DNA from: Phoronis australis
Lineage: Eukaryota > Animalia > Phoronida
Assembly (NCBI GenBank): GCA_002633005.1
Contig: NMRA01000702.1
Location: forward strand, 78,138-142,137
Length of the DNA: 64,000 nt
Reading direction: 5' to 3'
Shown here: positions 34,297 through 63,889 of the stretch, one piece after another
How positions within the stretch are numbered: the first letter of the stretch is position 1
How the letters are laid out: each line of letters begins with the position of its first letter
Notes under the pieces: generated by a model
The model's input: only the letters and a program-made list of their open reading frames with translations
Databases searched by the model: none
What the model was told of the DNA's origin: nothing
Program-made: the position numbers and the translations under genes

Positions 34297-34542
34297 TCAG
34301 AATACCAGTGATGCATTTGAAATGGCTAAAAGCACGACAGACACCACAAAAAGAAACCGGTCTATAACTGCCAACACGGTGCGCCATGTATGGCCGTGAT
34401 AAGATGATTTTGAAGTAACGATCTGTAGCGAAGAGCCTTCTTCTACGGTGGCGTCGTCCATTTCTGATAGTTCGTCGTCCTCGCCATTCTCGTGTTTTGT
34501 CTCCGTGCAAATGCACAAAATTTTGGAACGGAATCCAATGTG
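34297..34542 (-). CDS. Gene A exon 9 (M4, stop)
   Basis: HTWRTVLAVIDRFLFVVSVVLLAISNASLVF*. Confidence 0.92.
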   Translation of the reverse strand, partial: HIGFRSKILCICTETKHENGEDDELSEMDDATVEEGSSLQIVTSKSSYHGHTWRTVLAVIDRFLFVVSVVLLAISNASLVF

Positions 34543-37500
34543 CTGAAACAAAAGTTGAGTTGAGTTCTGTTGGTGCATCTGCTTGACAATTCAAATCAGA
34601 CTCCGTGGTACAGGACATAAGGTATAAGGTATAAAACCTCAATCTAATTTAAGATCGTCACAGGACCGGTTAAAAGGAATATATTGCCTAGCAACAAGAC
34701 AACACCAATCAACACTCAATGAAATTGTTATGTGTAAGACAGATATGAAATTTTGGTGCTATGAGACCTCAAGTACTTTTCATAGGCGAAGGAAGCAGAG
34801 GTCTGGGGGGCGGGGGGTGCATTTGCCCCTTCTCGTGAAGATGGAAGCAGGACCGCCCTCACCCCCCACTACTAAACAGGGATGTAGGGGATGTAAAAAG
34901 GGACCGGCAGTCGAGAAACAGAAGTCACACCAAAGCTGGATTTGCCCTTTGGGGGAAGTAAGACATTTTTATTGGGACGTTCCAGTTTGTAGTATGTTTT
35001 GCATAATTAAGTTCATATGAAAACGTACTCATACATATACGTACTTCAAAAGAGGCCGAGAAAAAAATTGTGAATCACAGATATTCCAGAGCAAATTGAT
35101 TCAGATAAAGTCATCGGTGGTTCACTTTTACCGTTTTTGATATCATGTTATTTGATATAAATGCCAGATCTTGAAGTGGGCCCGCTAACTGCATCCAGGA
35201 CTACCATTCCCTCAACGTTTTAATCTAAATGTTTTGTATAAGGGGCCAGTCACGGAGGGGAATCCAATATGGTGGAATGATTTGCTTCGTTTCCTGCAGT
35301 TCTCGGAAAATAAACCGTTTTGAAGGAAAGTAGCCTTTAAAATGTCACCCACATATCTCGTTGATGTGCTTTGGGGGTCACTGTACAAGGTTAGTGTTTC
35401 ATATTTCTTCCTCCACCTTGAATGATTTGTAAAAGAATATGATTCGTATTGTGAATCTCCCGGATGTGATGAAAGAACGCCTCTACCAATAGGGAGTCAC
35501 ATCAGCTTACCTTACGCAGACATTGAGGTAGCAGCTTGCGAGATCTGTCACTGTGCCACAAAGTATGTAAAACTGATGTTGCAGTTAAGCCAATCACCAG
35601 GATAACGAAATTCAACTCGCAAAGCTTGGCTGAAACACAATGAATGGAAATGAAACTCTCACCTTTCACAGTCCTACATCTTAATTAGACGATAGATGAC
35701 CTGTCCCGGTGGAATGCAGATTTAGGGTGAACAAGGGGGGGAGGCGGCGGTGGAATGNAAACCTTTGTTCAGGATCGTGGTGTGGTTCATGTTCTTGTTC
35801 GTGCTTTGGTTTTCATGTTCTCGCTCGTCTTCTGGTCCATGTTCTTGTTCATGTTTTGGTTCAAGTTCTGGTCCATGTTCTTGTTCATGTTTTGGTTCAA
35901 GTTCTGGTCCATGTTCTTGTTCATGTTTTGGTTAATGCTATAGTTCGTGTTCTGGTTCATGTTCTTGTTCATATTTTGGTTTATGTTCTGGTTCGCGTTC
36001 AAGTCCATGTTCTTGTTCATGTTTTGGTTAGTGTTATAGTTCGTGTTCTGGTTCATGTTTTGGTTTATGTTCTGGTTTGTATTCTGGTTCGTGTTCTTCA
36101 TGTTTTCGTACATGTTTAGGTGTGTGTACTGGTTCATATTCCGGTTCGTGTACTGCTTCATGTTCAGCTTCGTGTTTTGATTCGTGTTCTGCGGAGAACG
36201 GTTGTTTTTTAATACCGCGAAGTACCACACCTAAAGACGTCGTGGCGTGGAGTGAGTTAAATAAAAAGATTAACCACGACGCCGTCAATGTGATTCAATA
36301 CAGTTTGAAGTTTACGATTTACTTAATTACTTTGCCATTATCATGGGCGAATTGGGCAAAAAGTTTCGCCTCAGTGAAACAAAAACTCCGAGTAAACGAA
36401 ACAAAAGGTCCACAATGTCCACAGGAATTCGGCGCGGATGCACAATTCGTAGGCCTGAACCTATAGTGGCTCCGTTTTCTTACTCCTCGTTAAGTTTTTT
36501 TCAGTAAAAGGACCGAATATCGAAAAATTCGAGCCCCCCCCCTATATTTTAGGCTGAGTGCACGCATGGTTATTCACGAAGTTATCATTTAGCTGTCGTA
36601 TCTCGGCTTCCCTAACCATCTGACATCGGATTATTGGGGTCAACAAACATAGTCGATTCTGGTCTATGTGTTTTGGAAATCGAGTCGGTGATGAAGTGTT
36701 GGGGTTTTTTTTAAAAAGAGAAAATTAATACGCCTAAGACGAGCAAACTTTGCTTACCCTCGTTCACGTGCCATTGTGCAGCTTTTCAAAAAAATTGGTA
36801 CCTAGGCTGAAATTGACGTGGGCTTGTTTGTGTTTTTAGCTCAGAGAACACCAAAATGAGTGGGAGTAACGACAAAATCAACCTTTCCATTTTGGTCAGT
36901 AGCGGTAGCAAGGAATTCATTCCAATAATTGACGGAATTGTTTTTCTTTGCTCATACGGTAAATTGGCATAATTTTTTAACTTGAAATTGCAAAATCTTG
37001 TGGTGCTCACTTTTAAAGGTCCAAGTGTTAGTACAAAACACGGCACTTTGCTTCAAAAACTTTGAGATCCCGATGCCGATCCACGAGTGTCAACACGTAT
37101 GGGATCAGTAGATTCTGACTGATACCTTCAAGAAGTGGAAAACAAAAGTTATATTTACCTGTGCTGTGACTTGGGGACTTAACAAGGACCAGAGTTAGAC
37201 ACACCAATATGGCCGAACCTGACGGAAAGAATAATAATCAACTAGTTGGTTAAATATGACAAACTCAAGTAACCACCACAACGACGTGAAGTAGGTTTTG
37301 CCCACGACGATATCTCCAAGTGCAACATTAAAGCATATAATTATGGTATATCTCCTAGGCGGCAAGTGGCGGCATCCTGGGTCAGTGATTTGGTTTCCAG
37401 GAAAAACAGGTATTTTCCATGAGACATTATAACGGGGTGCTTTCTTCTATAAAATGAGCTTCCCGTCACTTTATAAAACCTCCTCGATGTAAAAACATTG

Positions 37501-40500
37501 ACTATGTTATTTCCCATTTCTATGGATTTGCACTCACAGTGCGTGTACATACAGGCTCCGAAATCATGAACAAAATCAGCCAAGAGTGTCACTGCTGTTC
37601 GCCGGCAGATGGCGCATGTGTTACTACTATTCCATTGCATACATAGGGTGTCACAGCTTAAAGCAGGGATAGATTGAGGGGGGGCAAGGGGGCCATGCCC
37701 CTGGATTTAACCCTGTGAAAGGGCCACACGCAGTTTTCGAATGTTTGCGTAAACCCTAAAAACGACATGTCAGCAGCGTTTGTTTCGTCCGTTAGTGTAT
37801 GCAGGGGCTTCGGTGTCCCTTCCAGCTAAAAATACTTATGATATTCAAAGGCACATTAGCGGATTTACCGCCGAATAACGCATTTTGGAGATTGTTGGAA
37901 CACACTTCTTAACGTTATTAGCTATGAACATAGCTATGAAACAATAAAGTTCATTTCAGCTTTGTGCGTTTAACAAAAATCAACAATTGTCGCCAATATT
38001 TGCCGTACATTCGCTGAAATTGAGACCGGTGACTTTATAGGTTAAATACGCTTAAAATACTCTGCCATTTAGCGAGGGTGGTTTTAACATCACTCAGAGA
38101 GTGTTTTATTGAGAACCCTGGGGGTACAGGTTACATTGATTTCACGCTCAGGCAGATCTCGAAAAAATCTCGTTTCTCGCCGATAATGTCCTTCCAAGTA
38201 TGGTGGTCAGAATTGACTGCAATGTTAGTTTTCTGCACGAGGTAAATGCTCTCACCTAGAATTAATTTCGCGTTTGTTTCAAACGGTAGCAGAAATATCA
38301 TGGGTATAAGCAGTACAGCACCAATGTTGAAGATAAACATTTCAGACAGCAACACCTTCACGTTGATAAGACTATCGAGCGAGTACCCAGCAAATGGGTT
38401 GTATTCTTCACGATGCATGTTCATGTAGAATATGATGTCTGGGAAAGGCTGTTGACAGCACGGGTACTTTTTGATGTTCAGCACTGCGGTAGCGTTTTCA
38501 ATGAACCACTCGTATTTAGACTTCGGAATGTAGTCCGACAGATCCACATGACCGCCATCGGTCCCTTCAAAGTGGCTCAGCGCAACCTGCAAAGGATTTA
38601 AGAATTTGTTTGCCTTAGAGGATGAGAACAATCTGGGGTGCGTTCAGTTGAACTAAGGTCTCGCAAATTTGGTGTGATCACTTTAAACCAGACAATTGTT
38701 TCGCGAGTAAGCTGGCAACCTTATTAACGTGTACTAGCACACTTCGTGGAGCGTTGAAATGCGCCCACGAATGCATTGCAAATGGTGTGCTTTTAGGATT
38801 CTTTATTTGTATCATAAAAATGGAAACTAGATGGCGCAAAAACATACAATCCATCCAAAAACAGGAACATGCCATATTTCATAAAAATCTGTCAAGGAAC
38901 TTCAGAGAAACAAAGGAAAACAGAATAAAATAAAATTGCCACTAGTGGGCACAGTTTCCGTTGGGTCCGCCTGAAAGTGGTCGTCGTCTGTTGTTATCTT
39001 CATATAAATACACTTACTAACTTTAGTAAAGATCCTGCAGTGGGTTTAAGAGATACAACTATGGGCGCAAAGCAAAACTACCACTAGGAGGCGCCACAGT
39101 AATCAGTCACCATCATCAAAGGTCGTCTTCACTGAGATCATATATGCTAATTTTCAAATGATTTGTTTGATACAGGGATGGACACCAAAAACAAGATTTG
39201 AAAACGGCAAAAGTGGCCACTAGGTGGTACAAAATACCTCGATTCTATCCAAAAACAGGCAGATAGCATCATCACACCAATAGATGCCTATATTTAAAAT
39301 TTTATGAAAATCTGTTGAGGACCTTTGAAGACACTGAGTTAAACGTAAAAAACTAAAATTGACATTAGAGGGCACAGTAGTAGTCAGATCTGTCTGAAAG
39401 TCGTCGTCATCCGTAGTCAACATCACATAAATACAATTGCTAAATTAAGTAAAGATTCAGCGAACGGTTTAGGAGATACAACCATAGGGGCAACAACAAC
39501 AAAACTGCCACTAGGAGACGCCACAGTAGTTGAAATCGTCGGAAAATCATCGTCAACCGTCCTCTTTATAGTAAGCGCATATATGCCAATTTCCACAATC
39601 ACCCTTTGAGCGATTTGGTTAACAGAGGTGTGGACGCAAAAAAGAGACTCGAAAACAGTAAAAATGGCCAATAGGTGGCGCAAACTACGTCGAATCCATC
39701 CGAAAACGGGAAGATAGTGTCATCTCACTCAAAGGTGCCTACATATTAAATTTCATGAAAATCCGTTTAGGATTTTTGAAGATACAAAGGTGAACGTAAA
39801 AAAATAAAATTGCCACTAGGGGGCACACCAGTAGTCGGATCCGTCCGAAAGTCGTCTTGCTCCGTTGCTAACATCATATAAATATACTTACTAAATTTTG
39901 TAAAGATTCTGCGAACGGTTTAGGAGATACAGCCATATGCGCAAACAAAACAAAAATGCCACTAAGAGGAGCCACAGTAGTCGAAATCGTCGGAAAATCA
40001 TCATCAACCGTCCTCTTCATAGTAAGCAAATACATGCCAATTTTCCCAATCATCCTTTGAGCGGTTTGGTTGATAGAGGGTCGGACGCAAAAAACAGACT
40101 CGAAAACAGTAAAAATGGCCTCCAGGTGGCGCAAACTGCGTCGAATCCATCGAAAAACGAGGGGATAGCGTCATCTCACTAATAGGTGCCTACATACCAA
40201 AATTTCATGAAAATCCGTTCAGGACTTTTAAAGATACAAACGTAAGCGTAAAAAACTAAAATTGCCACTAGGGGGCACACCGGTAGTCGGATCCGTCCGA
40301 AAGTTCGCTGATGCCGTCCCATTCATGAATGGAACATTTTTGCTAAATTTCATGAACGGACGCCGCCCGGACGGACGAACGGAGATGACGGCATAAATAT
40401 GTGGGCGCATAAAAATGGCTAAATTGATTGGTCATCGAGGCTTTAATGTTAAACTACCGGAGAAATTTCACTGCGCACTTTTCAACAAGCTAAGATTGTC

Positions 40501-43500
40501 TTGGATCGCCATTTTCACGAAAACATGTCCCTTTAACTACAAATTTATAGTGTTTGGGCTTTCTCCGTCAGATTTTCCACCAGTTGATCAAGAGAAAATT
40601 TTAGGGTCACTCAACTGAAGCGATTATTGAAAAATTATTTGAAAGTGCTGAAATGCGCCCACGATTGGGGAGCAAACAGTATGCTTCTAGAGCTGTATTA
40701 GTATTGAAAAATGGCACAGAATATGTCAAACCCGTCTAAAAGTGAAGATGGCATCGTCGTCTCCTCATGTTAATAAGAACCGTTTTTGCCAAATATAATG
40801 AAAATCCGTCCAGTATTTCGAAAGATATATCGGCAATTGTAAAAGGCCATCAGGGGCACATCGGTAGTCAGATCCGTCCAAAAGAAGTCAGCTGACGCCA
40901 CATTCATGTCAATACGCTTGACTCGTAAATTATACACATGGCCACTGGGTAGAGTTGAATAGGTCAAATCCGTTGGAAATGGCAACTTGACGTGGTCTCT
41001 TTAATAAAAACCTATTTCCAAAATTCCATGAGAAATCGTCATGGGACTGAAGATTCAGAGGCAAATGTGAAGTATTAAAATTGCCATTAGGGCCGGCAAT
41101 ATCCGAAGGTCGGTTTTGGTGTTCTCATCGGGAAAGCAATGCCAATTTTCATAATTGTCCTTCGACCGGTTTTCATACAAACAGACGGACACCAAAAATG
41201 GACGCCTAAACAATGAAAATGGCAGTACGGAAATGGAAGCCGTCGTCGTCGGCCTACTAACAAGCTATTTGCCAAATTTTATGAAAATGCGCCTATAGTT
41301 GAATTTCCGGTGTGGTAGTCGGATCCCTCCAAAAGTCGTTGCCATCCGTCGTCAACTCCATAGGAACAAATCAGCCAACTTTTTATGAATTTCCTCCACG
41401 CGGTTTTGGAGATACAGCAGTGGACATCGAATCACCCTTGCAGTGTGCAATCACATGGGTTTTGGGCTTAAACTTGACATGCTAAAAGAGTGTCGTTTAG
41501 GTGTGATAGCTTTCGGAAAACTGGATGGTGATTAAAATTCGTTTTTGTAAATTTTTCAATTAAAATGAAACACAAAACTAAATTAACACAATGGTTCGAG
41601 ACTCGACTTTTAAGAACAATGCTTCCGTGAAACGCTTTGATTTACTCACTCTCAGTCCATCGTATACCCACGAGCCAAATCTCAAAGGACAAACTTGGTC
41701 GTTGTACGGCTTGCCGTCGGAACTCTTGTTTATCTTGCAGTGAGATCGTAATGTCATTCTGGGTATATAAGCTACACTCCCGTCGAACAGCACTAACGCG
41801 TTCAGATCAGGATCAACATTATCCACATGGTCGACGCTGAAAAAGAATTACGTCATGTCTCTTAGCTCATCTTTCTGATACTCAAAGTACTTTATGTTCG
41901 CTGGTTGCACAAGTACAAAAGACGTGGGCGTTCACAGTTGTAACCAGTCGTACATGTAGTTTGATGTCACAATATGTTCCACAGTTGTAACCAGCTCTCC
42001 CGTATTGAATTAAAATGATTTGATGACAATTATCAACATACTCAAAAACATCATTACCATGATTATAATAATATTATTATCATTGCCATAGTCAGTGTTA
42101 TTTTTATTGTACATTATAGTTATTATTACATGAAAGGTATACCAAAAACAAAGAGGATTATAGTTCATATTATACGTATACGAAAACATTTTTAAATTTA
42201 ACTTCACCAACAGTCAGAGACGTAGATAGAAGTATTCAACAGGGGGACTAAACGCAAAAATCTTTGGCGAACGGTGGGCCACAATTGAAACCTGTTTCGA
42301 CCGAGGGAAATGCCTTTTTTCCCATGAACAGACATTAACCCAATTGCGCCCTCTCTTGGCTACGTCAATACCAACAGAAATTAGTGTGTTCACAGCGAAT
42401 ATTTAGTACAGACAATTTTCGCATCGCAGTAAATGTTCCTTAGCGTCATTTCTGATTCAGTGGTACCTCTCGACTGCGATATTTTCTGAAACACACAGTG
42501 AACAATTTCTGAAAGACATAGTTGAAATTTTGAGACTGTAGTATGAGCTCGTATCTACATATTGAGTAGGCAGAATTAAAAATTGTTACTCATTTTTAAC
42601 CCAATATTCACTGAGAACTGGAACCAGTCCCAAGCTCCTAGACAGTGATCCCGCGTCTCTGATTGGACCATACCAATGCGCGGGGTCCGATGTTCGATTG
42701 ATACCTGTTATACAACTTAATGTCTGGCGTCCACAACTTATGGGCGGCTACTGTCAGATAATGGACTCCTCCATGCTCGGATGGGTTCCATCGCAGGGAA
42801 ACGTCTTTCCATGCCTGAAGGAGATATTGACACAGTACAGAAAATCAAGAAGTATTAAAAGGTTCAATATCATTAGCTTTACTCGTGTACGGTATTGTAT
42901 TCAACAGCAGCCTGTCCGATATTAGCCTAGTGATGTGACCATTAAGCGGACAGTTGGTGCCCGATATTAGCGTAGTGATGTGACCATTAAGCGGACAGTT
43001 GGTGCCCTGTTGACTTTGTTCATGGATACTGCCTCCTAGGTAGTGGCCTGACTATGTTCATTATTTTAATAATGAACATTTGTAGTCAGTCAGGCTATTA
43101 AAATAACATTATTATCTATTTTAAGGACCTTTTATCCCCAAGCACTTGCTTCTGTCAGAACATTGCAGTTACACAGGGAATATTGTTTGCTAATTTTAAA
43201 GCGACAAGTATCCAACAACGTCAGTGGGTGGGTCTTCTTTTCGGCGTCTTATTCTGTATTCCTAGGGTCTATAGAATGGATTTGGACGGAACTGTCGGTC
43301 GGTATAACCACCAACTTCACGGGTTTACTGTTGTACATTCCTTAGACAGAGGACTACCCCCCTCTCCCCTGTTCTGTTCATTACCCAATTACAACAGCGT
43401 TTGATAACTTCTGTGCCATCTTTGACAATCTTGAGGCATGTTTAAAAAGTTCCCGGTCATGTTCGAAAACGGAGCCTCTTCGAAGCAACTCATGATCAAC

Positions 43501-46500
43501 TTTATCTACTTCGTACAGTACAAACTATTTATGATAGTATTGCGAAGTAGTGCTAATTTTAGTCCTTTTGCAGCGGCTGTAAATATGTCTTTGTTTACTT
43601 ACGTGCTAATTTTAAAGTTCGTGTTCAAATAAAACTCAGGGTCATGCTCACCAACGAAAATATTAAGCAACAAATAATGTTTCTGTGAATTTGTGAAAAC
43701 GAAGATTAGGAGGCCAAAGTACACTATGCATATGCGCCATGTTTGGCATTTTGCTTTGAGAAAACTGCGTGCTCTGGTTCAGAACAATCTCCTGCTTATT
43801 GTGAATATGTCACCATAGACGACCGTCGCCCTAACCTAAACGACCCTCGCCCTTTGCTAAACGACCATCGCGCTACCTAGACGACCATCGCCCTACCTAG
43901 ACGACCATCGCCCTATCCTAGACGACCATCGCCCTATCCTAGACGACCATCGCCCAATCCTAGACGGCCGCCGCCCTATCCTAGACGACCATCGCAGTTC
44001 TCACAAGCCTGTCTCTTTTGAGTGAAGAACCAGATGTGGTCAATTTTACTAATGCAAGTGCTTTAAATCAACAGCTATTTTTGTCAGAGAAGATGCGAGT
44101 TCAGTCCCACTTACACTGGAAAATTCCTCACCGGACCTAGTTTTCTCCGTATCGAGGCCTAGTTTCAGAACTGACGTAAGTTTTTAACAGGAACTAGTGT
44201 GGTTCTTCACGATTCCTGCCAAGTATAGCGGGTGTCGTGGTTCTTCACGATTCAGGCCAAGTATACAAACTACCCATATGTGAAAACATCTTCCATTTGT
44301 CATGTTCCCACTTTAGCCTGACTTTCTCGTACATTACTCTTTATTCTCACATCATTATGATTGCATAATATAATTCCATCTTATAACCTTCAGCCTGTCT
44401 GTAAAGCACAAGTTGACGATCTTACCAGTCTTAGCCAGGCGTGACATTCAAACATTTCATTCTTGATGTCCTAAAACAGATGAAAACACTGGGATGAAAA
44501 GTGACGTATATGAATTATTGAGACACAGGCCACATTAGAAATGTTATACGCAAGGACTTGCGAAAGATCAGCCAATGGGCTCTCTCAGAAACGATATCGT
44601 TCTTTTACGAATTTTTTTGCGTCCAAAAGACCCCTAAATGTGTCTTTTGGAAAAAGTTGGGGTTCTTTTCGTCTATGGCCGCCTCAGCACCCCGATTAGG
44701 TTTTACGTGTGCTTAAAGATGCTATGTCTTATTTAAATAGTTAAATTTGTAGCAAGCGCCACCTCGTGAATTCCTGGAGAACTGTGCGCACAAGTATCTG
44801 AAGAAAAGAAACAATTTGTAAATGAAATGCGATTTTAAAGAGAACACCACAACTGATACACTTAAGAACAAATGTGAGCATACAGAAAACTAGAAAGCCC
44901 TAGTAATTCTAAATTTTACGCAATCGTTATTTGATAGTGAAATGAACAAAATAGTAAAAACTGTGCCTTGTTTTATTAGGGTAGCGATGACATTTTACCA
45001 TACTCATTTGCGTAAAAATAGTCTCGCAAAACGAGACTTTGGCGAGATTGTAATGGTAACTGGTTCTCGGATGGTTTCCGGCACACCGGAAGACCCGGGG
45101 TTGTTTGTACTTCATTTGCTTATTCACGATTTAATGAGACATACATGAAGCATCTTTAAGAGCAAATGTTTGATTTTGTCGGCATCTTGGCCACAGTAAC
45201 AGAAGTCTGACGATGCTTCTGTTGGTAAGAGGTCAATTTAAGTATTTAAATATCAAATCGTAAAAGAATACTAACGTCTTGTTCATATTTTTACGTGTAC
45301 AAGATATGCAAGACGATACAGAAAGACTTTCCCAAATCTTTTTTCCCGTACGACACGTTAGGAAGTCTCCGTACACTGACAATCGGCATTGACGAGCAGT
45401 GACATACACGTTTAACGGAAGACTTAGTTTTATAACCATGTGCAGTGATCTATATTTTAGTTTGCTTTAAAAGGGTCCAGCAGTCTTTTAAAATAAGTCA
45501 ACGGGTACTCACGAAGGAATGCAAGCGAACAATTGACAGGCCGACTTTCACCTTGACAGGTTCATCGACAGGTGCCGGTCTGATGTCCTTGTTGTACTGT
45601 TCAAGTAAGAATGCGTAAAGTTTTCGCTCGTTCTCAACAGTTTTGGAAACGTTAGACTGCACTGAAACACAAAATGACACAATTTATCAGTTTTATTACT
45701 GCCCTGTCCATAGGGTCCACATGGCTTCGGCTTCACATTAAACAGACAACTGGTTGCGGGTATTAGTCGAGTTTCATTATGTTACAACTGACTAGCTCTT
45801 GTGCTCCTGCTCGCGAGATAAAGTTCCACGTTGCAACAGTTGACTACATAAATAAAAATACAATAACTCTCAAGATGATGGACCCCTTTTTCTAGGGTAT
45901 TGTTTTTCCAAGTCCGTTTTAATTACTGTAGAGTCATAAATCAGAATGCAATTGAGTGACCAAGTTGCAGGTAGCAGATTTTATTTATACAGTGTCCACA
46001 TCGCAAGTGCCGTCCGAGAAGGAGCCAGACCGAATGTCTTTTCTACCGTTAAAGAAAATGGATTGCGAACGCTGTCAGACGTCGAAAATGCTTTCTTATC
46101 CTCCAACCCAAAGCAGAAGGCAAATCTACATGTAGGCCTACCTTCTTAATTTGAGAATTGTGCATTCCGTGTTCGTGTTACGCCAAAAAGCACAGTTTGT
46201 TCTGCTCTGTGCCCGACTCAAGAAAGACCCCGGACCGCAGCCAAGGCCCGGTGTTTTTAAGATGCTTCCCAAAAGGCTCGTAACCAAAGATAAGCAAGGT
46301 TTTTGAAACCACAAGATTTGCCAAGTGATCAATAAAAAACAAACCATGCATCATTTCATCCGTCTCTGGTAGATTTCCATTTAAGAACAAGTAAAAAACT
46401 AACGCACCATTGGCTTAATTTTCAAAAAACAGTGGCAAGAACCAGCTGTCCTTTTTTGACCTTCAGCTCCATTCGCTTTGCGCTTGGCCAACCGGCAATC

Positions 46501-49500: not shown

Positions 49501-50057
49501 TGAACTCTTGAGTGTTTACTCAAAAGTTCGAGTTTAACTCGAGATAGTACTAAAAAATTGAGCCGATCGAGTTAAATTGACGCACGTAAACCGTAATGTA
49601 CTCGAGTAGAGAATAATGGTTATTTATCTTGAGATAGCACGAAAGTCAAAAACAATCTCGAATTCGGTTTCAAGCACCACTGTAACTTAGACCTCGGGCC
49701 TTAATATGCTTTTATTGCGATGGTATTTCCAGCGACCCATTGTCACGTGACTAGACGGAACTGGTAATCCTTGTATTTACTCACTTCAAAACTTGAACCA
49801 ACTAAACAAGTTTTAAGGAAACAAATATTGACGACAATAGATGTAACTCAACATTCAACATAAACTTCGATCACCGAATAAAATGCTTTGTTTTATGTTT
49901 GTTTGAAGAGCATAAAATGACATCGTTAAAAAACACCAGAATTGCTAATAGTAATAGTGTGTCGGTGGGTCTTACCTAGGTTGTCCCAATCACACAGCGA
50001 AAGCTTTGTCAAAGACAAAACAACACAGCAATAAAATAGCAGTCGTACACACTTCAT
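34297..50057 (-). CDS. Atypical nicotinic acetylcholine receptor alpha-like Cys-loop subunit, gene A (9 exons, 442 aa)
   Basis: Exons 50057-49976, 45661-45513, 44470-44426, 42814-42705, 41836-41650, 38586-38256, 37218-37159, 35629-35511 and 34542-34297; all GT-AG and in phase, 1329 nt. Motifs: signal peptide, YNKDIRP, W.D..L.WNP, WTPDIKLYN, FGSWVYDG, YPCC, FLLP, W..V..VIDR. Confidence 0.93.
35511..35629 (-). CDS. Gene A exon 8 (M3)
   Basis: AKLCELNFVILVIGLTATSVLHTLWHSDRSRKLLPQCLRK. Confidence 0.9.
35760..36190. repeat. Degenerate hexamer satellite (GTTCAT/GTTCTT/GTTCTG)n
   Basis: Seen directly; produces spurious VLVH / NMNQ ORFs. Confidence 0.9.
37159..37218 (-). CDS. Gene A exon 7 (60 nt, M2)
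   Basis: GSAILVCLTLVLVKSPSHST; ccgtcag acceptor and gtaaat donor; same size as and homologous to the gene B M2 exon. Confidence 0.88.
38256..38586 (-). CDS. Gene A exon 6 (loop C + M1)
   Basis: KKYPCCQQPFPDIIFYMNMHR...IFLLPFETNAKLIL. Confidence 0.93.
38930..41420. repeat. ~451-bp degenerate tandem repeat array in gene A intron 5
   Basis: GCCACTAGGGGGCAC at 39812 and 40264; ORF-track duplicates offset by 451 bp; more degraded copies on both sides. Confidence 0.85.
41650..41836 (-). CDS. Gene A exon 5 (Cys-loop, loop B)
   Basis: ..SHCKINKSSDGKPYNDQVCPLRFGSWVYDGLR. Confidence 0.95.
42705..42814 (-). CDS. Gene A exon 4 (110 nt, loop A)
   Basis: AWKDVSLRWNPSEHGGVHYLTVAAHKLWTPDIKLYN. Confidence 0.95.
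43818..43995. repeat. 20-21-bp tandem repeat x ~9
   Basis: Unit GACGACCATCGCCCTATCCTA. Confidence 0.9.
44426..44470 (-). CDS. Gene A exon 3 (45 nt, loop D)
   Basis: DIKNEMFECHAWLRL; the 45-nt size is typical of nAChR genes. Confidence 0.9.
45513..45661 (-). CDS. Gene A exon 2
   Basis: ERKLYAFLLEQYNKDIRPAPVDEPVKVKVGLSIVRLHSF. Confidence 0.93.
47382..49344. repeat. 982-bp direct duplication joined at a single N
   Basis: 47382-48362 and 48364-49344 are nearly identical, with N at 48363. Confidence 0.95.
49976..50057 (-). CDS. Gene A exon 1 (signal peptide)
   Basis: MKCVRLLFYCCVVLSLTKLSLCDWDNL; GTAAG donor in phase 1. Confidence 0.8.
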
Positions 50058-53100: not shown

Positions 53101-55280
53101 AAAACAAAGCATTTATCCTCACAACACAAAAATGGCTCTGCATGGGGCTTCGAGATCTCGGTACAGTCTATGGATACGTATGATATTCTTTCAAGAGCAC
53201 AAAGGTCCTGGCTGGAACTGAATACGCCGTGCATCTGAATTAATCAAATAAAGTTTACTATAGTCTTCGGCTGTAGTAACCATTGACTACAGAGTGTCAT
53301 TGTTGAAATATTGAAGAGTGTGCGTGGGTTATTACCAACAGGTTGTCTGCCAATGATTCCGTCCAATTTTATTTCGTATGAAACCCTAACTTCTAGGGCT
53401 TGTCTTCCACGGAGCAGCCCATTTTCTTAGCGGAAGATTTTTATGCGTAATTACACAGACCACCCTCATTCTGAGCCCATAGTTCTTTGCTTCCGAGAGT
53501 CAATTTATAAAACCAACACAATGTGGCGTTTTCATACCAATAAAATTGGCCCGATTTTGGATGCCTGACACCTCATCGCGCCGCGGGCTTCAGACCTAAC
53601 TCTCAAGCAGTTCGTTGGGTTTGTTGTGGGACACATTGTCGCACTAAAGTCCCCGAGGTGACAATATGTGTCGAGTGATGCAGTATAGACCCTATTCACG
53701 CCGGCAGGAGGCGCGTTCCAAAACGAGGCTCGCTACGATAGCTCTGTTAGCTTATCAGCATAGGAGTTTGTGTTTCAGTCCGTGTTGTTCCCCGAACGGC
53801 TAGAAAAAATACGGACACGCTTCACAATCTCTAAAGACGTTTAGATTCGGAAGCGTTGGGTCGTTGCCATACGCCGCGACGAAGCAAAATATGTCCGTGT
53901 AAAATAATTGTTTTCGAAAAGTTAGATCATATTTTGTCGCATCTCGGTCAGTTGTCAAGCATCAATAGTAACGACCGGAGAATGGGCCAACCAGGTTGTA
54001 TTTTCATGACTACGGATTTAGGGGGGGGGCCTAAAATTGTATCAGATCCCATTTTTGAGTTCGGGTGCGAATTGCTGACTAGCACACGTGCACAACCAGG
54101 GGGTCTTGGGGGTGAGTAAACAACGCATAGGCGCTGAATGAACCCCGTTTTCCCGTTTTTTTAGTCAACAGGTCCGCAAACCCAAGNNNNNNNNNNNNNN
54201 NNNNNNNNNNNNNNNNNNNNNNNNNNNNNNNNNNNNNNNNNNNNNNNNNNNNNNNNNNNNNNNNNNNNNNNNNNNNNNNNNNNNNNNNNNNNNNNNNNNN
54301 NNNNNNNNNNNNNNNNNNNNNNNNNNNNNNNNNNNNNNNNNNNNNNNNNNNNNNNNNNNNNNNNNNNNNNNNNNNNNNNNNNNNNNNNNNNNNNNNNNNN
54401 NNNNNNNNNNNNNNNNNNNNNNNNNNNNNNNNNNNNNNNNNNNNNNNNNNNNNNNNNNNNNNNNNNNNNNNNNNNNNNNNNNNNNNNNNNNNNNNNNNNN
54501 NNNNNNNNNNNNNNNNNNNNNNNNNNNNNNNNNNNNNNNNNNNNNNNNNNNNNNNNNNNNNNNNNNNNNNNNNNNNNNNNNNNNNNNNNNNNNNNNNNNN
54601 NNNNNNNNNNNNNNNNNNNNNNNNNNNNNNNNNNNNNNNNNNNNNNNNNNNNNNNNNNNNNNNNNNNNNNNNNNNNNNNNNNNNNNNNNNNNNNNNNNNN
54701 NNNNNNNNNNNNNNNNNNNNNNNNNNNNNNNNNNNNNNNNNNNNNNNNNNNNNNNNNNNNNNNNNNNNNNNNNNNNNNNNNNNNNNNNNNNNNNNNNNNN
54801 NNNNNNNNNNNNNNNNNNNNNNNNNNNNNNNNNNNNNNNNNNNNNNNNNNNNNNNNNNNNNNNNNNNNNNNNNNNNNNNNNNNNNNNNNNNNNNNNNNNN
54901 NNNNNNNNNNNNNNNNNNNNNNNNNNNNNNNNNNNNNNNNNNNNNNNNNNNNNNNNNNNNNNNNNNNNNNNNNNNNNNNNNNNNNNNNNNNNNNNNNNNN
55001 NNNNNNNNNNNNNGTTACTTCAAATTTTATATTTCGATTAGCGACACATTCAAGTTAACTATGTTGATTGTGGTCTGTATATGGAATAAAGCTGAAGCCT
55101 GGCATGCAAATGGAATTGGTATTTTATGATAAACTTATAGTAGTGCATTACAAGCACCTATCTAGAAGATCCCTGCTTGGCCAGTTTCGTATTGCTGTCC
55201 ACTGTCAAACCGCCAGTCTCAGTCAAGGATCGGTGCATGCAGTAACTGGAGATCAACGTATGCAGCCGAGTTATTATTAT

Positions 55281-55496
55281 TTAAAGCGCAACGTTGGACA
55301 AAACTGTTGCTACAAGGAATATGACACAAAACAATCTGTCCAAAATTAGCACAAGAGTGCGCCACGTATACAGATCACTGTATAACGTCACGTTAACGCG
55401 AATGGAATCATCGGCTGCGTGAAGTTGTGCAGAGTCATCAGTTTGAGGCTTTGCTTGTCGTAGAATACACAAGACTTTCGCGAATACGTTCACGAC
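55281..55496 (-). CDS. Gene B exon 9 (M4, stop)
   Basis: YTWRTLVLILDRLFCVIFLVATVLSNVAL*. Confidence 0.92.
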   Translation of the reverse strand, partial: VVNVFAKVLCILRQAKPQTDDSAQLHAADDSIRVNVTLYSDLYTWRTLVLILDRLFCVIFLVATVLSNVAL

Positions 55497-58400
55497 CTAC
55501 AATGCAAGAAGTCGGTGGCATTTCAAGCGACAAAAATAAAAAATTGATATAGATAAACATGTTTAACAAGCCCCCTGCAGACAGGTCCTTTTGTGTTGCC
55601 TCCTGTTGTCGTGGCATGCAAGACAACAACTAAAGATGATTCGGGGTGATAAAAGCATGCACTCTTTTGCTAGAAAATCAACAATTAAAAATACCACCAG
55701 ACTTCACCAATTCCCCCCCCACCCAAAAAACACAACAGAAGCAACAATGTGCTTATTGGCCAAATTGCACTCAATAATGATTGCGCAGAGGTCAAACTAA
55801 AATAAATAATTATTTTAATAAATAAATGTTCTTTATTATCTTCTTTATATCCGCACTGGCCTAGCGGAGTAATAGATTGAAAATGTGTGCACTGTTTAAA
55901 AGTTGTGTCTAAAATAAGCCGTGGAGCAACAGCGTTTTGCAAAATCTTCAAGAGACTGCTCATGGCTAGAAACCCAAATATCTAGCAAGCCGTTTTATGA
56001 AAGTGGCTACCGTACTGGCTCGATTAAATTCCTGGATGCTTATTTGTCCCGGTGGCAATACATGAAGACCCAGCCTTTCACGAAACCCGACACCTTTTCT
56101 TCATTTGACTAAAGCACTGTAAAACTTTGTAACCGGTATTCCTATCGAAAATAGTCCCCCCAAAAGAATTGACAAATGGCGTATTTTCGGAAATTTTCCA
56201 AAAAAGTACGCCTATGGGCGTATTTTCGGTAACCTTTTGTGCGTTTTGAAATTCTAGTGGATAGTTCTGAAATGCTCATATATGATTTGGTGTATTGACA
56301 AGACTTTATATTTTGGGATTGGGATTGATTTCACTCAAATGACTGTCGTTTAACGAGATTTTGGGTTACTTAATTGTTGGTAACAAAACGTTTTACACCG
56401 ACAGTATGAAAGACACTTTTAACGACTTTTCGAAAATACGCCTCCCTCTTCCGAAAATAGGCCTGGAAGACTTTTTGAAAGGTCGTTTTCCGAACATCCG
56501 CACATGACAGGGGCGGATCCAGGATTTTGAGTTAGGCGGAGCCAGGGCACAGGAATAACCAGAATTTCGTCACATGCTCGCACCAAGCATAAAATGTAGG
56601 GATATAGGGGGTCTTGAAGTTTTGGGTTTGTGGACCTTATTACTAAAAAAGGAAAACGGGCTTTGTTCAAGGCTGTGCACTGCGTATTCCGCCCCCCCCC
56701 CACAAGAGCCACCTAGGTGCGCGTATATACTAGCGCACCCCGAGCTGCCAATTGGAATCTGTGAGAATTTTAGGGGGNNNNNNNNNNNNNNNNNNNNNNN
56801 NNNNNNNNNNNNNNNNNNNNNNNNNNNNNNNNNNNNNNNNNNNNNNNNNNNNNNNNNNNNNNNNNNNNNNNNNNNNNNNNNNNNNNNNNNNNNNNNNNNN
56901 NNNNNNNNNNNNNNNNNNNNNNNNNNNNNNNNNNNNNNNNNNNNNNNNNNNNNNNNNNNNNNNNNNNNNNNNNNNNNNNNNNNNNNNNNNNNNNNNNNNN
57001 NNNNNNNNNNNNNNNNNNNNNNNNNNNNNNNNNNNNNNNNNNNNNNNNNNNNNNNNNNNNNNNNNNNNNNNNNNNNNNNNNNNNNNNNNNNNNNNNNNNN
57101 NNNNNNNNNNNNNNNNNNNNNNNNNNNNNNNNNNNNNNNNNNNNNNNNNNNNNNNNNNNNNNNNNNNNNNNNNNNNNNNNNNNNNNNNNNNNNNNNNNNN
57201 NNNNNNNNNNNNNNNNNNNNNNNNNNNNNNNNNNNNNNNNNNNNNNNNNNNNNNNNNNNNNNNNNNNNNNNNNNNNNNNNNNNNNNNNNNNNNNNNNNNN
57301 NNNNNNNNNNNNNNNNNNNNNNNNNNNNNNNNNNNNNNCACAAGTCAAGGCTTCGCAGCACTGGCTGGAGCATAAACAGACATTACGTCGGACGTTTTGT
57401 TTGAGTAGGCTTGTGAACATACGGTCGGGATTAATAAAGGATTAACTCGAACCAGTCTTCAGTCAATCATCGCACCGAAAGCTATTAGCACCGGTCTGTA
57501 ACAACCTGCGCCCACCCACACACGGGGAAAAACGTGACACGCTTATTCAACTCCCGGCGCTTTTAAAATCGTGCCAATACGGTACTATCTACATAATATT
57601 TTTAAGTCGATTTAATTTTGTTTATATTTTGAAGTACAAAGTGAACTTTTTCAATTTTGTAGCTTGTACAATTTGTCTTAACTGCACTTGACCGTTAGCC
57701 TTACCAAACGCACACCAGGTGGGCAAAGATGGAGTATTCAGAATACAGTTATTTTCTACAATGAGAACAGCATTTCCAGATTTTAAATGTGTGTCAAAAG
57801 TGAGCAGATAGAACGTAGTCAAAGCCTTGTTGTTACCTTATGCAAACAGCCAGGAAGGGCTCTGTTGGCGTAGTCACTGTACCACAGGTTGTGCAAGATG
57901 CTCGACACAAACATGGCCACACCGACCAGTATTATGTTAGTTTCGCACAGTTTAGCTGAAAACAAAAGCATGACACATGTTGCAAATCGGAAGAAATAAC
58001 ATATACAGGTGGAGACAGTGACTGTAGCTCCGTGATTTGAACTCGGGACTCCCGTTTGGGAGACCCTGGTTCATAACCTGGCTTTACCGGAAGATAATCG
58101 AGCTTTGCACAAAGATGTCTTCTACTCCTCTGAGCTCGGTCTTACTAGTGAATGTGAGCAGGGGAGAGAATGAGAACTTGGATATAATGCGAAAGCGACT
58201 TCTGGGGCTGTGGTTAAATATTATATATTAGGCGGATCTGGGCGCCCTCTTGTGCTGCCACTGCTGAACTAAGTGTGTCGTGTTCAGGACTCGGGCCTTC
58301 TTTTTGTTTTTGTTTTTGTACTGAGCAAGAACAGGCCAACATGACTATACATGCAAACCTTACGTTGCCTACTACTAATCCCACCACGCCCTGCCTCCAA

Positions 58401-61400
58401 TAACTTGAAGTTTCCCCGAGTCGTGAAACCTTGATGGTCACCAAGGGATGGACACAGGAGCGGCAGTAAGTGGAGTTAAGCGAACTTCTCTGTGCAATAA
58501 TTTTGTTTCGCTACAATCCTGTATACGTTTATACCAAAAATACGCTGTCGATCTGTTATTTTGTTAATGCCAAGGACCACAGAAATAGTATTCATTAAGG
58601 CTGAAACATATTTCTAACCAGCAACTTTTGTTCCTGTAAATATAACGCCGGAACGTTGGATCTCTCCTTTTAACAAACGAATATATCTCTCTTACCTATA
58701 GCCGTCCCTGGAGACCGTAACAGAATGAACGTGAGGCACACCATCGCAGTGCAAGCTATAAAATGCAAAGAGCAATTGAAAATTATACTAGTAGACGGGT
58801 GCATTTTGCTTGAGCTGAAACATCTTAGAGCGCTTAAAACGTCGTTTATTCTAAACAACGGCGTTTAAAATCTTAGTTTGTTATAACAGAACGTCAATAA
58901 ATGCTGTTCTGAACCACCTGCCAACAATACTATTTTTATATATAGACCTAATGGCGTTTCAACTAATTCCTTACGCGGGTTAGAAGTGATATTCGGGACT
59001 GGACAGGAAGAAGTGGCTCGTTATTGCTTAAGGAGCATAAAATAACGCGATTGTCAAATCGACTTATTAAGCCTTGTCTCGAGCAGTGATGAAATGACAT
59101 TAATGAACTGACATTAATTCGTAGGCAATTTTTACCAAGCAGTGAAAAATGCGTTCTAACTTCAGTAAGTAATTTGGGATCAACATTATGACTTGTAGTT
59201 GTTTAAATCAACGAGTTGGTTTTTGACAGACGATGGTTTTAAGGCAGCTTTAGGGACAGCGAAATCACGACTTTTCGTAATATCAAAACTTGTCAGCAAA
59301 TACAAGCGGTAATAATTTTCATGTTTCGCCACGATTCACATTTAAAAGTAGACATTTAAAATGATTCTAAACCACGATTTGATGATTTTACCCATAACTA
59401 CTTCCGTCTCTTGCTTTTGTATAAATGACGCTTTCCTGGCATGACGAAAGCTAAACCTTTCACTGTGTCACAGAATGCATTTGGTGGTTGGAGACGCGTG
59501 GCAAAAGATTCTGTGAGTTGTCGAAGTTGACTCAAACTTTTGAGGATTGGTGACGGTCATCATTTTGTTTCAAAGACTTAGTAAGTGTTAAGTAGGCTTT
59601 AATATCTATTAAAGGTCAAAAATACATATTTTGGACCCTATTATGAGTTCTCTCATGATATAGTTCGAGGTCATGTTACCCTGTTTTCATTATACCTATT
59701 AATATTTTCCCTCTCGACTCAAACGGAAGCAGGAATATCAGTGGTATGAACAGAATTGCTCCGATGTTGAACAAACGAATTTCGGACACGAATAACAAGT
59801 CCTCCGACAATTTTTCGTAAGGCTCGGATTCGGCGAATGATGGACTGTACGTTTGACGCTGAATCTTCAACGTAAACATCATGTACTCATACGGTTCAAG
59901 ACAACATGGGTAAAAATTTGTAGTCAAGACGCTGGTCACGTTGGAAATGGCCCATTCGTACTTGGACTTGTGTAGATATGACCTCAGTGACGCGCTCGCG
60001 TCAGTGGAGTTGCTGAGCGACACCTGGAAGAAGATTAGTTGAATGGCTCACTTCAGCTTCTCGCACAAATAAGCAATGGTATATACCATCACCACACAGC
60101 CATTAAAGAGAAAATCTAACGTTTTTTGGTGTTTGCCTAACTAAAACTTTGAATACCGGAGCTATGTCAATACCGAAGTATCGCAGAGACATGTTTAAGA
60201 TTTACACCTATCTCTTGAAATACACAACTTTGAGTTACCAGTGCTTTGTTTCCGCATGAGGCAACACATACGCTAACATTTGGGGCTTTGTTACCCAAAT
60301 GTCTAAGTGAACTTAGCCAAATAGCGACTACTCCGTCCTAATCGATGCACAAATTCATGCGGCTGCTGGAGAAATCTTATTATCTAATTTCTCTTACAAT
60401 GCCTCGATTTTAAAACTTCAAAGACGGCTAACATTTACTTTTTAATTTTAAAAACAGTCAAGTTGGTCGTTAGCCTAACGTATTGTTCGGTTGTTTGACT
60501 TAAGGAAACTAGTACGCTAAACAGGCGCGTTGGTTCACGACCGGAATTATCTCGATCAAGAGAGTCGGCCAAGCCCATGAATAGCGATTACCGGTAGTTT
60601 ACTTCAATCTGTGGCGGTGTCATCAAGCCTTTGATGAGGAGCTATGACAGAATCTTACATGGATGTCAACAAACTAGCTAGGTGTACACCTTACTTGGAT
60701 GACAACCAGCAAGAACACGCCACCTTGTGCTTGGTTGACATCCAACATCCAACACCTGCCCCACCTGGTGGTCAATTATGAAGCTATACACATGGTTGGT
60801 TAGTTGATTAACATCAAACATCCAATAGCTGCTGCACCTGGTGGTCAAACGTCACAGGCTGATACAGCTAAGGTGAAGTTAGAGTTGCTTGACATCTAAC
60901 ATCCAATAGGTGCCCCACCTGGTGGTCAAAATATGAAGCTATACAAAGGGACAGATAGTTTGTTAGTTGGTTGACATCCAATACCTGCTCCACCTGGTGG
61001 TCAAACGATCACTGGCAGATACAGGTAAGATGTAGTTAGTTGGTTGACATCTAAAATCCAATAGCCGCCCCACCAGGTGGTCCAATCACGAAGCTATACA
61101 AAGGGACAGATAGTTGGTTAGTTGGTTGACATCCAACATCCAATAGCTGCCCCACCTGGTGGTCAAATCATGAAGATATACAAAGGGACAGATAGTTGCT
61201 TAGTTTGTTGAAATTCAGCAAATTGTAATTTAATGGCTAAGAGAACAATATATTTTTAAAGGAAAAGAAATTTATTTGAAAAGTAAAACATGTTCAAAAA
61301 TAAAATGTTAAAAAACAATTTTGAAAATATTTTGTTTTTAAAATGGAAGTATTGAAAATAACAGGTGTTCGTGAAAATATCAGATATAAAACAATTAAAA

Positions 61401-63889
61401 AATATGAAAGTGAAACAGTTTTAAAACCAATATAAAATCACTATCAAATACAAAATATTTTGCTTTTTGTCTCCATTTCCAGATGATTTTAAAATGAGAA
61501 GCTGCCCTTGGCTGCTACAGTTGATGAGTTCATGTGGAGAATTTCTTGCTTACACTGGTCACTGCTCATATTCCCTCAGCCCCAGACAACTTTTACGATG
61601 CCTATTCAGCTCGCCCTTTGTATTGATGAAGATCTGAGTTAATGAAGTGGAAAGGTAATAGCTAGCACTGCCCTTTCAACGATGATACTTGTTATTTTAC
61701 CCAAGTTAGTTTCCTCTGGCACTAGTGGAGTTGCAGCTGCGGACATTGTTTAATGATTGCAACTGTGGAGAGTAGTTTTAACTTGTTATATTAAATATCA
61801 AAAACGACTAAAATTTAATTCGTTTTTAACTTGACCATGGGCCACGTCCTAATAGAACGATGGTTTTAAATATGTTTCAAACAAGTTCTTTTTATTTCAT
61901 TTTTAATGCCCCTGTCTACTTCTTTCTCTCATCGGGAAATGGTTAGTTGATATCTTTTTATTTTATTCTTAAACTTGAAGTACCAAAACAGTGGTAGATT
62001 TTGATCGCCAGCGAAACTTAATTAGTTCAGTTAATTGTGAACCCATCCCTGGACTTCCCAGATATTAGGCAGCTACACTAGACATTTCACAGCAAACAAA
62101 ACTACAATTCTAGCTTTTTGTCAAGTCATATGAAATGAGAGGGCACAATTTAAATACAAATGTGTCCTAGTTAAAAATCTTTTTAAACGAGATTGAAAGA
62201 ATATTAAAAGAATAATCCATCTGATATTGTCAACTTTGTAAATCCACAGAATATATCAATACCCAAGGTCGTTTAGCTTCAATCATACCCAATGTTTGTA
62301 GTTTTTAGCTTATTAGTTCATCGGTTTTTAAAAATCGAAATTCTTAATTGGTTATTTTTTTCCAGATGACTACCGCCATGGTGTTTGTCTTTAATGAAAG
62401 TTATTTGTTAATGCATTTTGGAAACTTGCCATTATGTACAGGCAGAGATATTTACTACAGTTTAGGGTTTGGGTGTGGGACAATGAGGTCATCACAACTA
62501 TTTCTAGGAATAGTTTTACAATTTGACCAAAAGGTGTCGACAGTAGTAACGGTACACCTAACTAGTTGGTTGACATCTATGTAAGATTCTGACATGCATG
62601 GAGCTGGTGATGAGCCGAGGAATTCGCTGGCATTCACGTAACTTGATTACTGATTTAGTTGATAATGGCCAGGCGAGCAACAATTTAAATCAAAATAGGT
62701 ATTTTACTTAAAACAATTTAAAAATCAAAAACGTTAGTTTTCTCGTTTAAGTTATGAAAACTTATGACCTGGTCAGAAACTGATCGGAGTCCTGACTTGT
62801 GGGCAACAACACAGTTGAAATGTCTTACCAAGTTTTCTAAACACTAGCTTTTTCAGAAGAATCAACGTCCACTTTGGAGAAGACAGGGTGGTACATATCA
62901 AACAAGAAACAGGAAATATTCTGTTATTTCATATACTGTGTTCTCATGATTGAGTCCCAATGTTTTCTAATACTTCGTGTGCCACAATTAATATTATGAC
63001 CAGTTTGTAAAACCGATCTGATCTTAAAAGTTTGCATCACTTAATAGGAGATTTTGTTCTTACCAAATGGCCGTTGTAAGTCCACGATCCAAGTTGCAGC
63101 TGGCACTCTTGCTCTGACAAAGCAGTTCCCATGGGCGACAGTTGTATTGCACAGTGAGTCTTCAACGTAACTCTTGGTACATAAAACACCGTGCCGTCAT
63201 AGCGAACAAGCGCCAGAGTACGAGGATCGTGGTTGTCAACGTGATCCACGCTATCGATCAGACAAAAAGCACTCTTTGGTTCGGATTTCCAAATAAAAAT
63301 AGTACCTTCCGACCCACATACATAATTGTTAATGAACACAATGTTTAATCAAGTAATAATAGCTATGAGCTGAAGACAGCACCATGACACCGCCTTCTCC
63401 TAGCTACAATCAACTACGAACTTTGAGAGGTAGTATTTAATTTCATTAGACCTTGACGAAATTAAACACAGCTACTACTTGCATGCGAATTCACATTAAT
63501 GTTTGGTTTCTTCGTACAATGCATTATACAACGGGCATTCTATCAAAAGTTGTCGTTCATCCTCAATTCTATTTCCCTTGGGAAAAATGTTTTGTACAAG
63601 AGTTATCAGCTGATGATTAGAAATCTGAATATGTTTGAATCAAGACATGATATTTAAATCAAATTCATTTCGTAGAAAGTATAGTCACGTCAACAAGTTC
63701 TACTGGCACGAATGAGTGGTGGCTACGCCTTCGGTGGAGATGGCCATCTGGGTAGAGACGTTTATTACGTGAAACTTACCTGTTGTAAAGTTTTATGTCT
63801 GGTAGCCACAATCTGTCAGCTGATATTCTAAACTCCTGGATACCACCAAATTGGTCTGGGTTCCATTTCAGTGATATATCTCTCCAACT
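55281..63889 (-). CDS. Atypical nicotinic acetylcholine receptor alpha-like Cys-loop subunit, gene B (5' exons outside window)
   Basis: Exons 63889-63780, 63250-63064, 60023-59696, 58755-58696, 57955-57837 and 55496-55281; same phases and nearly the same sizes as gene A; WLPDIKLYN, LGSWTYNG, YPCCLEPY, FLLP, W..L..ILDRLF. Confidence 0.92.
57837..57955 (-). CDS. Gene B exon 8 (M3)
   Basis: AKLCETNIILVGVAMFVSSILHNLWYSDYANRALPGCLHK. Confidence 0.9.
58023..58228 (+). mobile_element. Degenerate tRNA-derived SINE-like element
   Basis: A-box-like TAGCTCCGTG and B-box-like GGTTCATAACC at tRNA-like spacing, with an AT-rich tail. Confidence 0.4.
58696..58755 (-). CDS. Gene B exon 7 (60 nt, M2)
   Basis: ACTAMVCLTFILLRSPGTAI; tttatag acceptor and gtaaga donor. 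Confidence 0.88.
   Translation of the reverse strand, partial: LALRWCASRSFCYGLQGRL
59696..60023 (-). CDS. Gene B exon 6 (loop C + M1)
   Basis: NFYPCCLEPYEYMMFTLKIQR...IFLLPFESRGKILI. Confidence 0.92.
60730..61210. repeat. ~75-80-bp degenerate tandem repeat in gene B intron 5
   Basis: Six copies of C(C)ACC(T/A)GGTGGTC, each with GTTGACATCCAA-like motifs. Confidence 0.85.
63064..63250 (-). CDS. Gene B exon 5 (Cys-loop)
   Basis: ..THCAIQLSPMGTALSEQECQLQLGSWTYNGHL; 187 nt. Confidence 0.93.
63780..63889 (-). CDS. Gene B exon 4 (loop A)
   Basis: SWRDISLKWNPDQFGGIQEFRISADRLWLPDIKLYN; 110 nt. Confidence 0.93.

Follow-up and report, generated by a model that had tools for sequence, protein, structure and literature searches.

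Tandem nAChR-alpha-like genes of Phoronis australis with a largely intact ligand pocket and a remodelled gating interface as candidate membrane-tethered acetylcholine-binding proteins

Can a Cys-loop receptor that keeps an alpha-type ligand pocket still open its pore when the parts between pocket and pore are remodelled, or does it act as a binding protein held in the membrane? The question was raised by two tandem genes resembling nicotinic acetylcholine receptor (nAChR) alpha subunits, here called gene A and gene B, on a stretch of 64,000 nucleotides from the phoronid Phoronis australis (assembly GCA_002633005.1, contig NMRA01000702.1, positions 78,138 to 142,137). This whole stretch is called the window, and all positions below are window positions. 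Both genes likely encode membrane-tethered acetylcholine-binding proteins (AChBPs) that are predicted to bind ligand without pore opening, and a probability of about 55% was given to this reading.

The residues of an alpha-type pocket were found in both genes, namely the loop A Tyr, the loop B Trp and the loop C Tyr with its vicinal cysteine pair (CC). Gene A also kept the loop D Trp89 and had Phe239 in place of the second loop-C Tyr. The original prediction, made from the sequence of the window, had claimed an intact ligand site (loops A, B and C with CC, and the loop D Trp in gene A), and these residues were present save for the Phe of gene A; the aromatic pocket is largely intact in both genes. 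Gene B also lacked the Lys/Asp pair beside loop C that starts gating in muscle receptors.

The gating interface was remodelled in both genes. The reference set held 83 proteins, of which 9 had no CC and 30 no landmark for the first membrane helix (M1), leaving 44 measurable. From the loop-C CC to the Pro ending M1, 57 residues were counted in gene A and 59 in gene B, against 42-43 in 41 of the 44 measurable references. Scored against a profile of 16 canonical relatives, gene A was longer in the Cys loop (+2), the beta8-beta9 loop (+2) and the pre-M1/M1 part (+15), and shorter between M2 and M3 (-9), while gene B matched these values (+2, +2 and -9) except across the linker, where its alignment broke. 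The excess in the pre-M1/M1 part was +15 residues (A) and +17 residues (B), and neither gene had the invariant length of a gating-competent subunit. The protein P0016, with a distance of 68, was rejected as a further long-linker case: its beta10 segment was repeated and Arg 26' and Pro 14' were kept, which indicates a probable gene-model artefact.

At the level of residues, the Cys loop had 15 residues in both genes against the 13-residue F/Y-P-x-D canon; gene A kept the Pro (K-P-Y-N) and had lost the Phe and Asp, and in gene B the motif was gone, Pro included. Loop 2 was visible in gene A only, with Ile79 in place of Glu. Both genes had Phe, not Pro, at M1 14', and the M2-M3 Pro sat at 19' rather than 23'. 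The pre-M1 Arg and the beta9 Trp were kept (Arg250 and Trp218 in gene A, with equivalents in gene B), the Arg being shifted in register relative to M1. A Pro at M1 5' was shared by A, B and 12 of the 44 measurable references, and the Pro near the M1 end is, as judged from the compared proteins, a subfamily trait and not a shifted kink Pro. Seven positions are given as conserved across the superfamily (PMC4795631, Table 1; this and the other articles are cited for their accessible parts): gene A kept the Cys-loop Pro, beta9 Trp, pre-M1 Arg and M2-M3 Pro (4/7) and gene B the last three (3/7), with the Arg and the M2-M3 Pro out of register in both. The Cys-loop Pro is reported there as 100% conserved. 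The pre-M1 Arg has three acidic partners (PMC10899235), two of which were lost in gene A. In M2, position -1' was Ala (A) or Gly (B) and the Glu of cation channels was missing, 17' was Lys or Arg, and the pore-facing 2', 9', 13' and 16' were all hydrophobic in both.

The claim that both genes deviate in the same way at every gating element held for the Cys loop, the pre-M1 length, the M1 14' Pro and the M2-M3 length; it did not hold for the pre-M1 Arg, kept in both, the M2-M3 Pro, kept at 19', or the Cys-loop Pro, kept in gene A. The predicted change of the loop-2 Glu/pre-M1 Arg pair was found on the Glu side, visible in gene A only, and not on the Arg side in either gene.

What carries the main reading is the position of the long insertion. 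In the accessible text of PMC11601209, a single residue added behind the pre-M1 arginines was enough to abolish currents and to uncouple the domains in alpha7 while ligand binding survived, and 72 functionally verified subunits had no indel in a 37-residue segment around the pre-M1 linker; functional channels do have indels in the Cys loop, in M2 and in M2-M3. The insertions of A and B (15 and 17 residues) fall inside that segment. From this position we infer binding without normal gating, and that part of the original prediction is well supported. The nearest engineered counterparts, mutants of alpha7 and of alpha7-GluCl with residues inserted before M1 (Godellas, Cymes, Grosman 2024, PMC11601209), share with A and B an insertion after the pre-M1 Arg and an intact pocket; they differ in carrying 1-2 artificial residues, against 15-17 natural, selected ones accompanied by erosion of other interface loops. 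AChBP-channel chimeras are also mentioned in the literature (PMC4586589).

In the proposed mechanism, the conserved membrane domain would bring the subunits together into pentamers of A, of B or of both, with a pocket that would bind acetylcholine or else nicotinic alkaloids and toxins. Binding would be disconnected from the pore, which would stay shut, by the slack in the linker, by the erosion of the Cys loop and of loop 2, and by an M2-M3 region shorter by 9 residues. The proteins may buffer transmitter at the cell surface, as is thought for secreted AChBP, or intercept nicotinic ligands, and they might also damp canonical receptors through co-assembly.

Six-frame translation and splice-site inspection gave gene A nine exons on the minus strand (ATG at 50057, stop at 34297), with GT-AG borders at all introns and an open frame of 442 amino acids that has a signal-like N-terminus and four hydrophobic segments. 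Six exons of gene B were visible on the same strand (63889 to 55281), its first three lying outside the window. Exons common to both had identical phases and mostly equal sizes (110, 187, 331/328, 60 and 119 nucleotides, nt), and the proteins were 41% identical. The predicted pair of paralogs with identical intron phases, open spliced frames and four transmembrane segments was borne out by splice inspection and frames. Several intron positions are presumably those of alpha7-type genes. No piece of a third paralog was found elsewhere in the 64-kb window. RNA evidence came from three stranded runs of one study, with junction reads counted at 97% likeness; the triplets below give the reads per run. 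The exons were as follows.

Gene A exon 1, 49976..50057, minus strand: 82 nt, signal-peptide-like start; junction to exon 2 in 2/0/17 reads.
Gene A exon 2, 45513..45661, minus strand: alpha1 helix and beta1, weak PF02931 match; junction reads at both ends.
Gene A exon 3, 44426..44470, minus strand: 45 nt, the sole candidate; loop 2 (Ile79 for Glu) and loop D Trp89; junctions in 4/3/10 and 5/4/12 reads.
Gene A exon 4, 42705..42814, minus strand: loop A Tyr127 at its end; PF02931 at E 1.8e-9; junction in 1/10/8 reads.
Gene A exon 5, 41650..41836, minus strand: loop E, C-x15-C loop at 41689-41739, loop B Trp185.
Gene A exon 6, 38256..38586, minus strand: loop F, beta9, loop C (Tyr232, Cys234-Cys235, Phe239), Arg250, the +15 linker at about 38353-38409, M1; read-supported variants.
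Gene A exon 7, 37159..37218, minus strand: 60 nt, M2 and shortened M2-M3; GT-AG, with size and phase of the read-confirmed gene B exon 7.
Gene A exon 8, 35511..35629, minus strand: M3 and start of the cytoplasmic loop; variant 35577 read in 3/3 RNA runs.
Gene A exon 9, 34297..34542, minus strand: short acidic loop, M4 and stop; reads run on toward 33700 (3' untranslated region).
Gene B exon 4 equivalent, 63780..63889, minus strand: loop A; PF02931 at E 2.9e-10.
Gene B exon 5, 63064..63250, minus strand: C-x15-C loop at 63103-63153 without Phe-Pro-x-Asp, loop B Trp; loose read ends at 60024 match its 3' end.
Gene B exon 6, 59696..60023, minus strand: loop C, pre-M1 Arg, the +17 linker at about 59793-59855, M1.
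Gene B exon 7, 58696..58755, minus strand: 60 nt, M2 and shortened M2-M3; junctions in 15/28/137 and 29/28/103 reads.
Gene B exon 8, 57837..57955, minus strand: M3; junction in 32/39/153 reads.
Gene B exon 9, 55281..55496, minus strand: short loop, M4 and stop.

Pfam PF02931 (Neur_chan_LBD) matched 7 of the 10 scanned exons of A and B, and the three membrane exons scanned matched no channel family in Pfam. The expected fold, a Neur_chan_LBD domain followed by four membrane helices, was present, with a profile score of 224 bits for gene A. M4 had weak likeness to nAChR M4, and the profile of the M3 exon found no nAChR match in the PDB.

Reads covered the gene A exons on the strand expected for a minus-strand transcript. 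Junctions 1-2, 2-3, 3-4 and 4-5 of gene A (19, 17, 21 and 19 reads summed) and 6-7, 7-8 and 8-9 of gene B (180, 160 and 224 reads) were exactly as modelled, and for gene B junction 5-6 the loose read ends at 60024 numbered 39 and 191. Over both genes 8 of 13 junctions were read-supported, with about ten times as many junction reads for B as for A in these runs. Gene A exons 6, 8 and 9 carried read-supported variants, and junctions 5-6 to 8-9 were modelled from splice sites, coverage and homology with gene B. Reads at these last four junctions were swamped by an expressed repeat in an intron. Intron 5 of gene A holds a dispersed repeat (38686-41455; 451-nt unit, 2.5 copies at 39186-40304) with strongly stranded reads at a depth above 1000, mostly 90-95% alike and hence from other copies; intron 1 holds a near-identical tandem duplication of about 1 kb (47386-49400).

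The three RNA runs listed no joint inside gene B exon 6 and no extra joint between exons 7 and 8, so the B mRNA contains both the long linker and the short M2-M3 region; no in-frame GT-AG able to remove the linker was found. Junction reads also placed the membrane helices of B in the same mRNA as the binding domain, which is not the secreted form of an AChBP without a membrane domain. Alternative exons restoring canonical loops would, by the original prediction, have refuted it, and the RNA junctions instead confirmed the modelled exons where read.

Between A and B, the nonsynonymous divergence (dN) was 0.53 and the synonymous divergence (dS) 2.7 (Nei-Gojobori, 336 codons; synonymous divergence near saturation), and for M1-M3 the values were dN 0.44 and dS 2.8. 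Identity was 70% in M1, 47% in M1-M3 and 48% in the extracellular part. The pre-M1 linker, with 23% identity (22 codons, a noisy estimate), was the least conserved part and also differed in length, and this variability fits a tether. Among the coding substitutions listed for gene A, 6 of 8 were synonymous. A and B are maintained genes under purifying selection, and the argument of the original prediction against decay was upheld by dN far below dS in the paralog comparison and by the RNA junctions. That the genes are decaying duplicates, or the gene model wrong, is extremely unlikely: read support was missing for junctions 5-6 to 8-9 of gene A and 4-5 of gene B and the searches described below found no close orthologue, but the frames are open over 15 exons and eight junctions are read-confirmed. 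Selection also bears on whether the two halves work independently, the outer half binding ligand and the membrane half being a leak channel or responding to lipid, pH or force by opening. Such an arrangement would agree with a free linker joining two halves that are each under purifying selection; it is nevertheless very unlikely, given hydrophobic residues at all four pore-facing positions in both genes and no positive sign of another stimulus.

In a profile search with the exon-6 alignment against 1.84 billion representative proteins, 68 reached E<=0.001 and not one reached 1e-10, so there was no close relative among them. A mixed-alignment search returned 14 proteins, none of them close, and word-based protein searches with single exons found nothing, which is weak evidence. 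The exon looked up had no entry in the ESM Atlas. A single metagenome locus (L001) was rejected, its match being antisense to a bacterial gene and due to chance. In the trees, the A+B pair was the sole relationship resolved, with long-branch warnings. The full-length tree, built without any named AChBP sequence, placed A and B in a weakly supported group (84/95) with all seven proteins that have no transmembrane helix or one (7/7) and eight rows of four-helix type; Alpo4-like and octopus alpha10-like subunits, divergent arthropod subunits and the Solemya proteins fell in it too. Approximately unbiased (AU) tests rejected neither A/B with Solemya (p 0.33) nor A/B with P0059 (p 0.50). The distinct subfamily that had been proposed would comprise two paralogs and one bivalve look-alike.

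The nearest known system, by exon 5 and by full-length match, was the Alpo4 group of divergent lophotrochozoan alpha-type nAChRs (Alvinella Alpo4, PDB 8bx5, PMC10338036; P0036; Capitella P0037). Alvinella Alpo4 was the best PDB match of exon 5; the top full-length relative was P0036 (29% identity), whose own best PDB match was Alpo4 and which shares the V-C-x-T pattern in M2. Unlike A and B, P0036 and P0037 have a 13-residue F-P-F-D loop, a normal pre-M1 length and the M1 14' Pro, and Alpo4 has no vicinal Cys. Soluble AChBPs (Aplysia, Lymnaea, Biomphalaria, Capitella, spider) resemble A and B in an intact pocket and a Cys loop without the gating motif, their loop length being variable (PMC4569296, PMC3423370), and Aplysia AChBP and alpha9 were the top matches from loop F to beta10; AChBPs have no membrane domain, whereas A and B have four conserved helices. 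A likeness in S-K-Y-E was rejected as a sign of AChBP descent, the motif being two residues out of register.

The closest natural look-alikes were two unannotated predictions from Solemya velum (KAL5006793.1/KAL5007574.1; P0021, P0069), with the loop A, B and C aromatics and CC, a degenerate Cys loop, a long pre-M1 linker, four helices and the M1 5' Pro. They differ from A and B in an 8-residue Cys loop, a +26 linker, the M1 14' Pro kept, the M2-M3 Pro lost and M2-M3 of full length. The structure model of P0069 was mediocre, with a predicted local distance difference test (pLDDT) score of 64 and below 50 in the linker, and its ESM Atlas matches were generic nAChR clusters only. The Cys loop was non-canonical in 12 of the 27 references measurable for it: 10 had no four-helix domain (some perhaps fragments), and the 2 from Solemya had a long linker. 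A tick protein (P0083), outside this measured pattern, had four helices, no Pro in the loop and a linker that was not long, but CC was absent as well. The suggested analogy with cephalopod chemotactile receptors was not upheld. These receptors (CRT1, CRB1) are, like A and B, divergent nAChR-family members of marine invertebrates, but in the accessible account (PMC13174522) their pocket is remodelled, the channel architecture kept and the genes intronless, the reverse of A and B, which keep the pocket, remodel the interface and have introns (8 in gene A). In the full text searched, which leaves subscription journals largely outside, no natural receptor was found described that combines four helices, an intact pocket and a long pre-M1 linker; the nAChR family is documented to have expanded in lophotrochozoans, with genes in tandem arrays and domains in unusual combinations (PMC6896357, PMC10338036, PMC13174522).

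Several other AChBP-like proteins were observed. P0058 has a degenerate Cys loop, one membrane helix and a basic tail, and P0025 and P0061 have a degenerate Cys loop and a hydrophobic end like a glycosylphosphatidylinositol (GPI) signal; all three are possible independently anchored binders. P0059 and P0006 are soluble, with Cys loops of 36 and 69 residues owing to an acidic low-complexity insert.

A number of points weigh against tethered binders. The membrane domain is under purifying selection beyond the need of a mere anchor, and an AChBP-like protein anchored by one helix (P0058) exists. The pre-M1 Arg, the beta9 Glu-Trp, an M2-M3 Pro and, in gene A, the Cys-loop Pro persist. M2 9' Val and a missing -1' Glu are likewise seen in relatives that are canonical in other respects (P0032 and P0036 for 9'), so the pore residues alone are no argument for a shut pore. 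An AlphaFold model of exon 6 alone extended M1 with part of the insert as one 30-residue helix (mean pLDDT 79) and left a 10-residue loop at pLDDT 64-68; Foldseek found nothing like it at E<=0.001. On this model the insert may be structured in part, and the contact could conceivably have been re-built. The 72-subunit rule is weighted to human and model-organism channels, and whether all five linkers need normal length is left open in its source (PMC11601209).

These points bear on two further explanations. A and B could be accessory subunits that co-assemble with canonical subunits in gating channels and tune or damp the response, their own interface being free to drift. Accessory subunits usually lose the residues of the principal face, while A and B keep them (loops A, B and C with the vicinal Cys), and an M2-M3 region 9 residues shorter would mismatch canonical neighbours. 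Such a role, favoured by the conserved M1 and M4 motifs, the good tolerance of non-alpha interface mutations (PMC10899235) and the open matter of the five linkers, was held to be rather unlikely. Alternatively, in a re-engineered interface the lengthening of the Cys loop, the extension of the M1 helix and the shortening of M2-M3 may compensate one another, giving a ligand-gated, possibly anion-leaning channel. Both sides of the interface carry changes that two old paralogs share, the membrane domain is conserved, a helical M1 extension is predicted, Ala/Gly replaces Glu at -1' with Lys/Arg at 17', and natural indels are tolerated by functional channels in the Cys loop, in M2 and in M2-M3 (PMC11601209). 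This explanation was nonetheless judged unlikely: a pre-M1 indel was found in 0 of the 72 functional subunits of that source, linker length and sequence differ between A and B, and gene B has no Cys-loop Pro, the residue reported as 100% conserved (PMC4795631). The tethered, uncoupled binder was preferred over both.

Elsewhere in the window, a single-exon frame of 562 codons (22952-24637, plus strand) encoded Sushi/CCP repeats (PF00084, E 1.5e-11) together with one hydrophobic segment and a tail on the cytoplasmic side. An EF-hand protein had exons at 13157-14761 (minus strand), with a presumed likeness to calaxin/EFCAB1. A 42-nt tandem repeat at 2107-3320 (29 copies, 96% matches) had long open frames on both strands.

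For functional pentameric channels the rule on pre-M1 length is presented as having no exceptions (PMC11601209, accessible text), and A and B, which are expressed and selected, break it by 15-17 residues with the pocket kept. It is tentatively proposed that invertebrates repeatedly evolved, or long kept, naturally uncoupled four-helix Cys-loop receptors in which a binding ring on a slack tether acts at the cell surface, where it would be a sink or decoy for acetylcholine and for nicotinic toxins; A, B and the Solemya proteins might then be living intermediates between gated nAChRs, one-helix binders (P0058) and secreted AChBPs. If A and B bind without current, they would be the first natural uncoupled receptor found and might represent a stage through which AChBPs arose, and a role would emerge for some of the orphan subunits in the large nAChR expansions of invertebrates. 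If they instead conduct, they would reveal a second way of coupling binding to gating.

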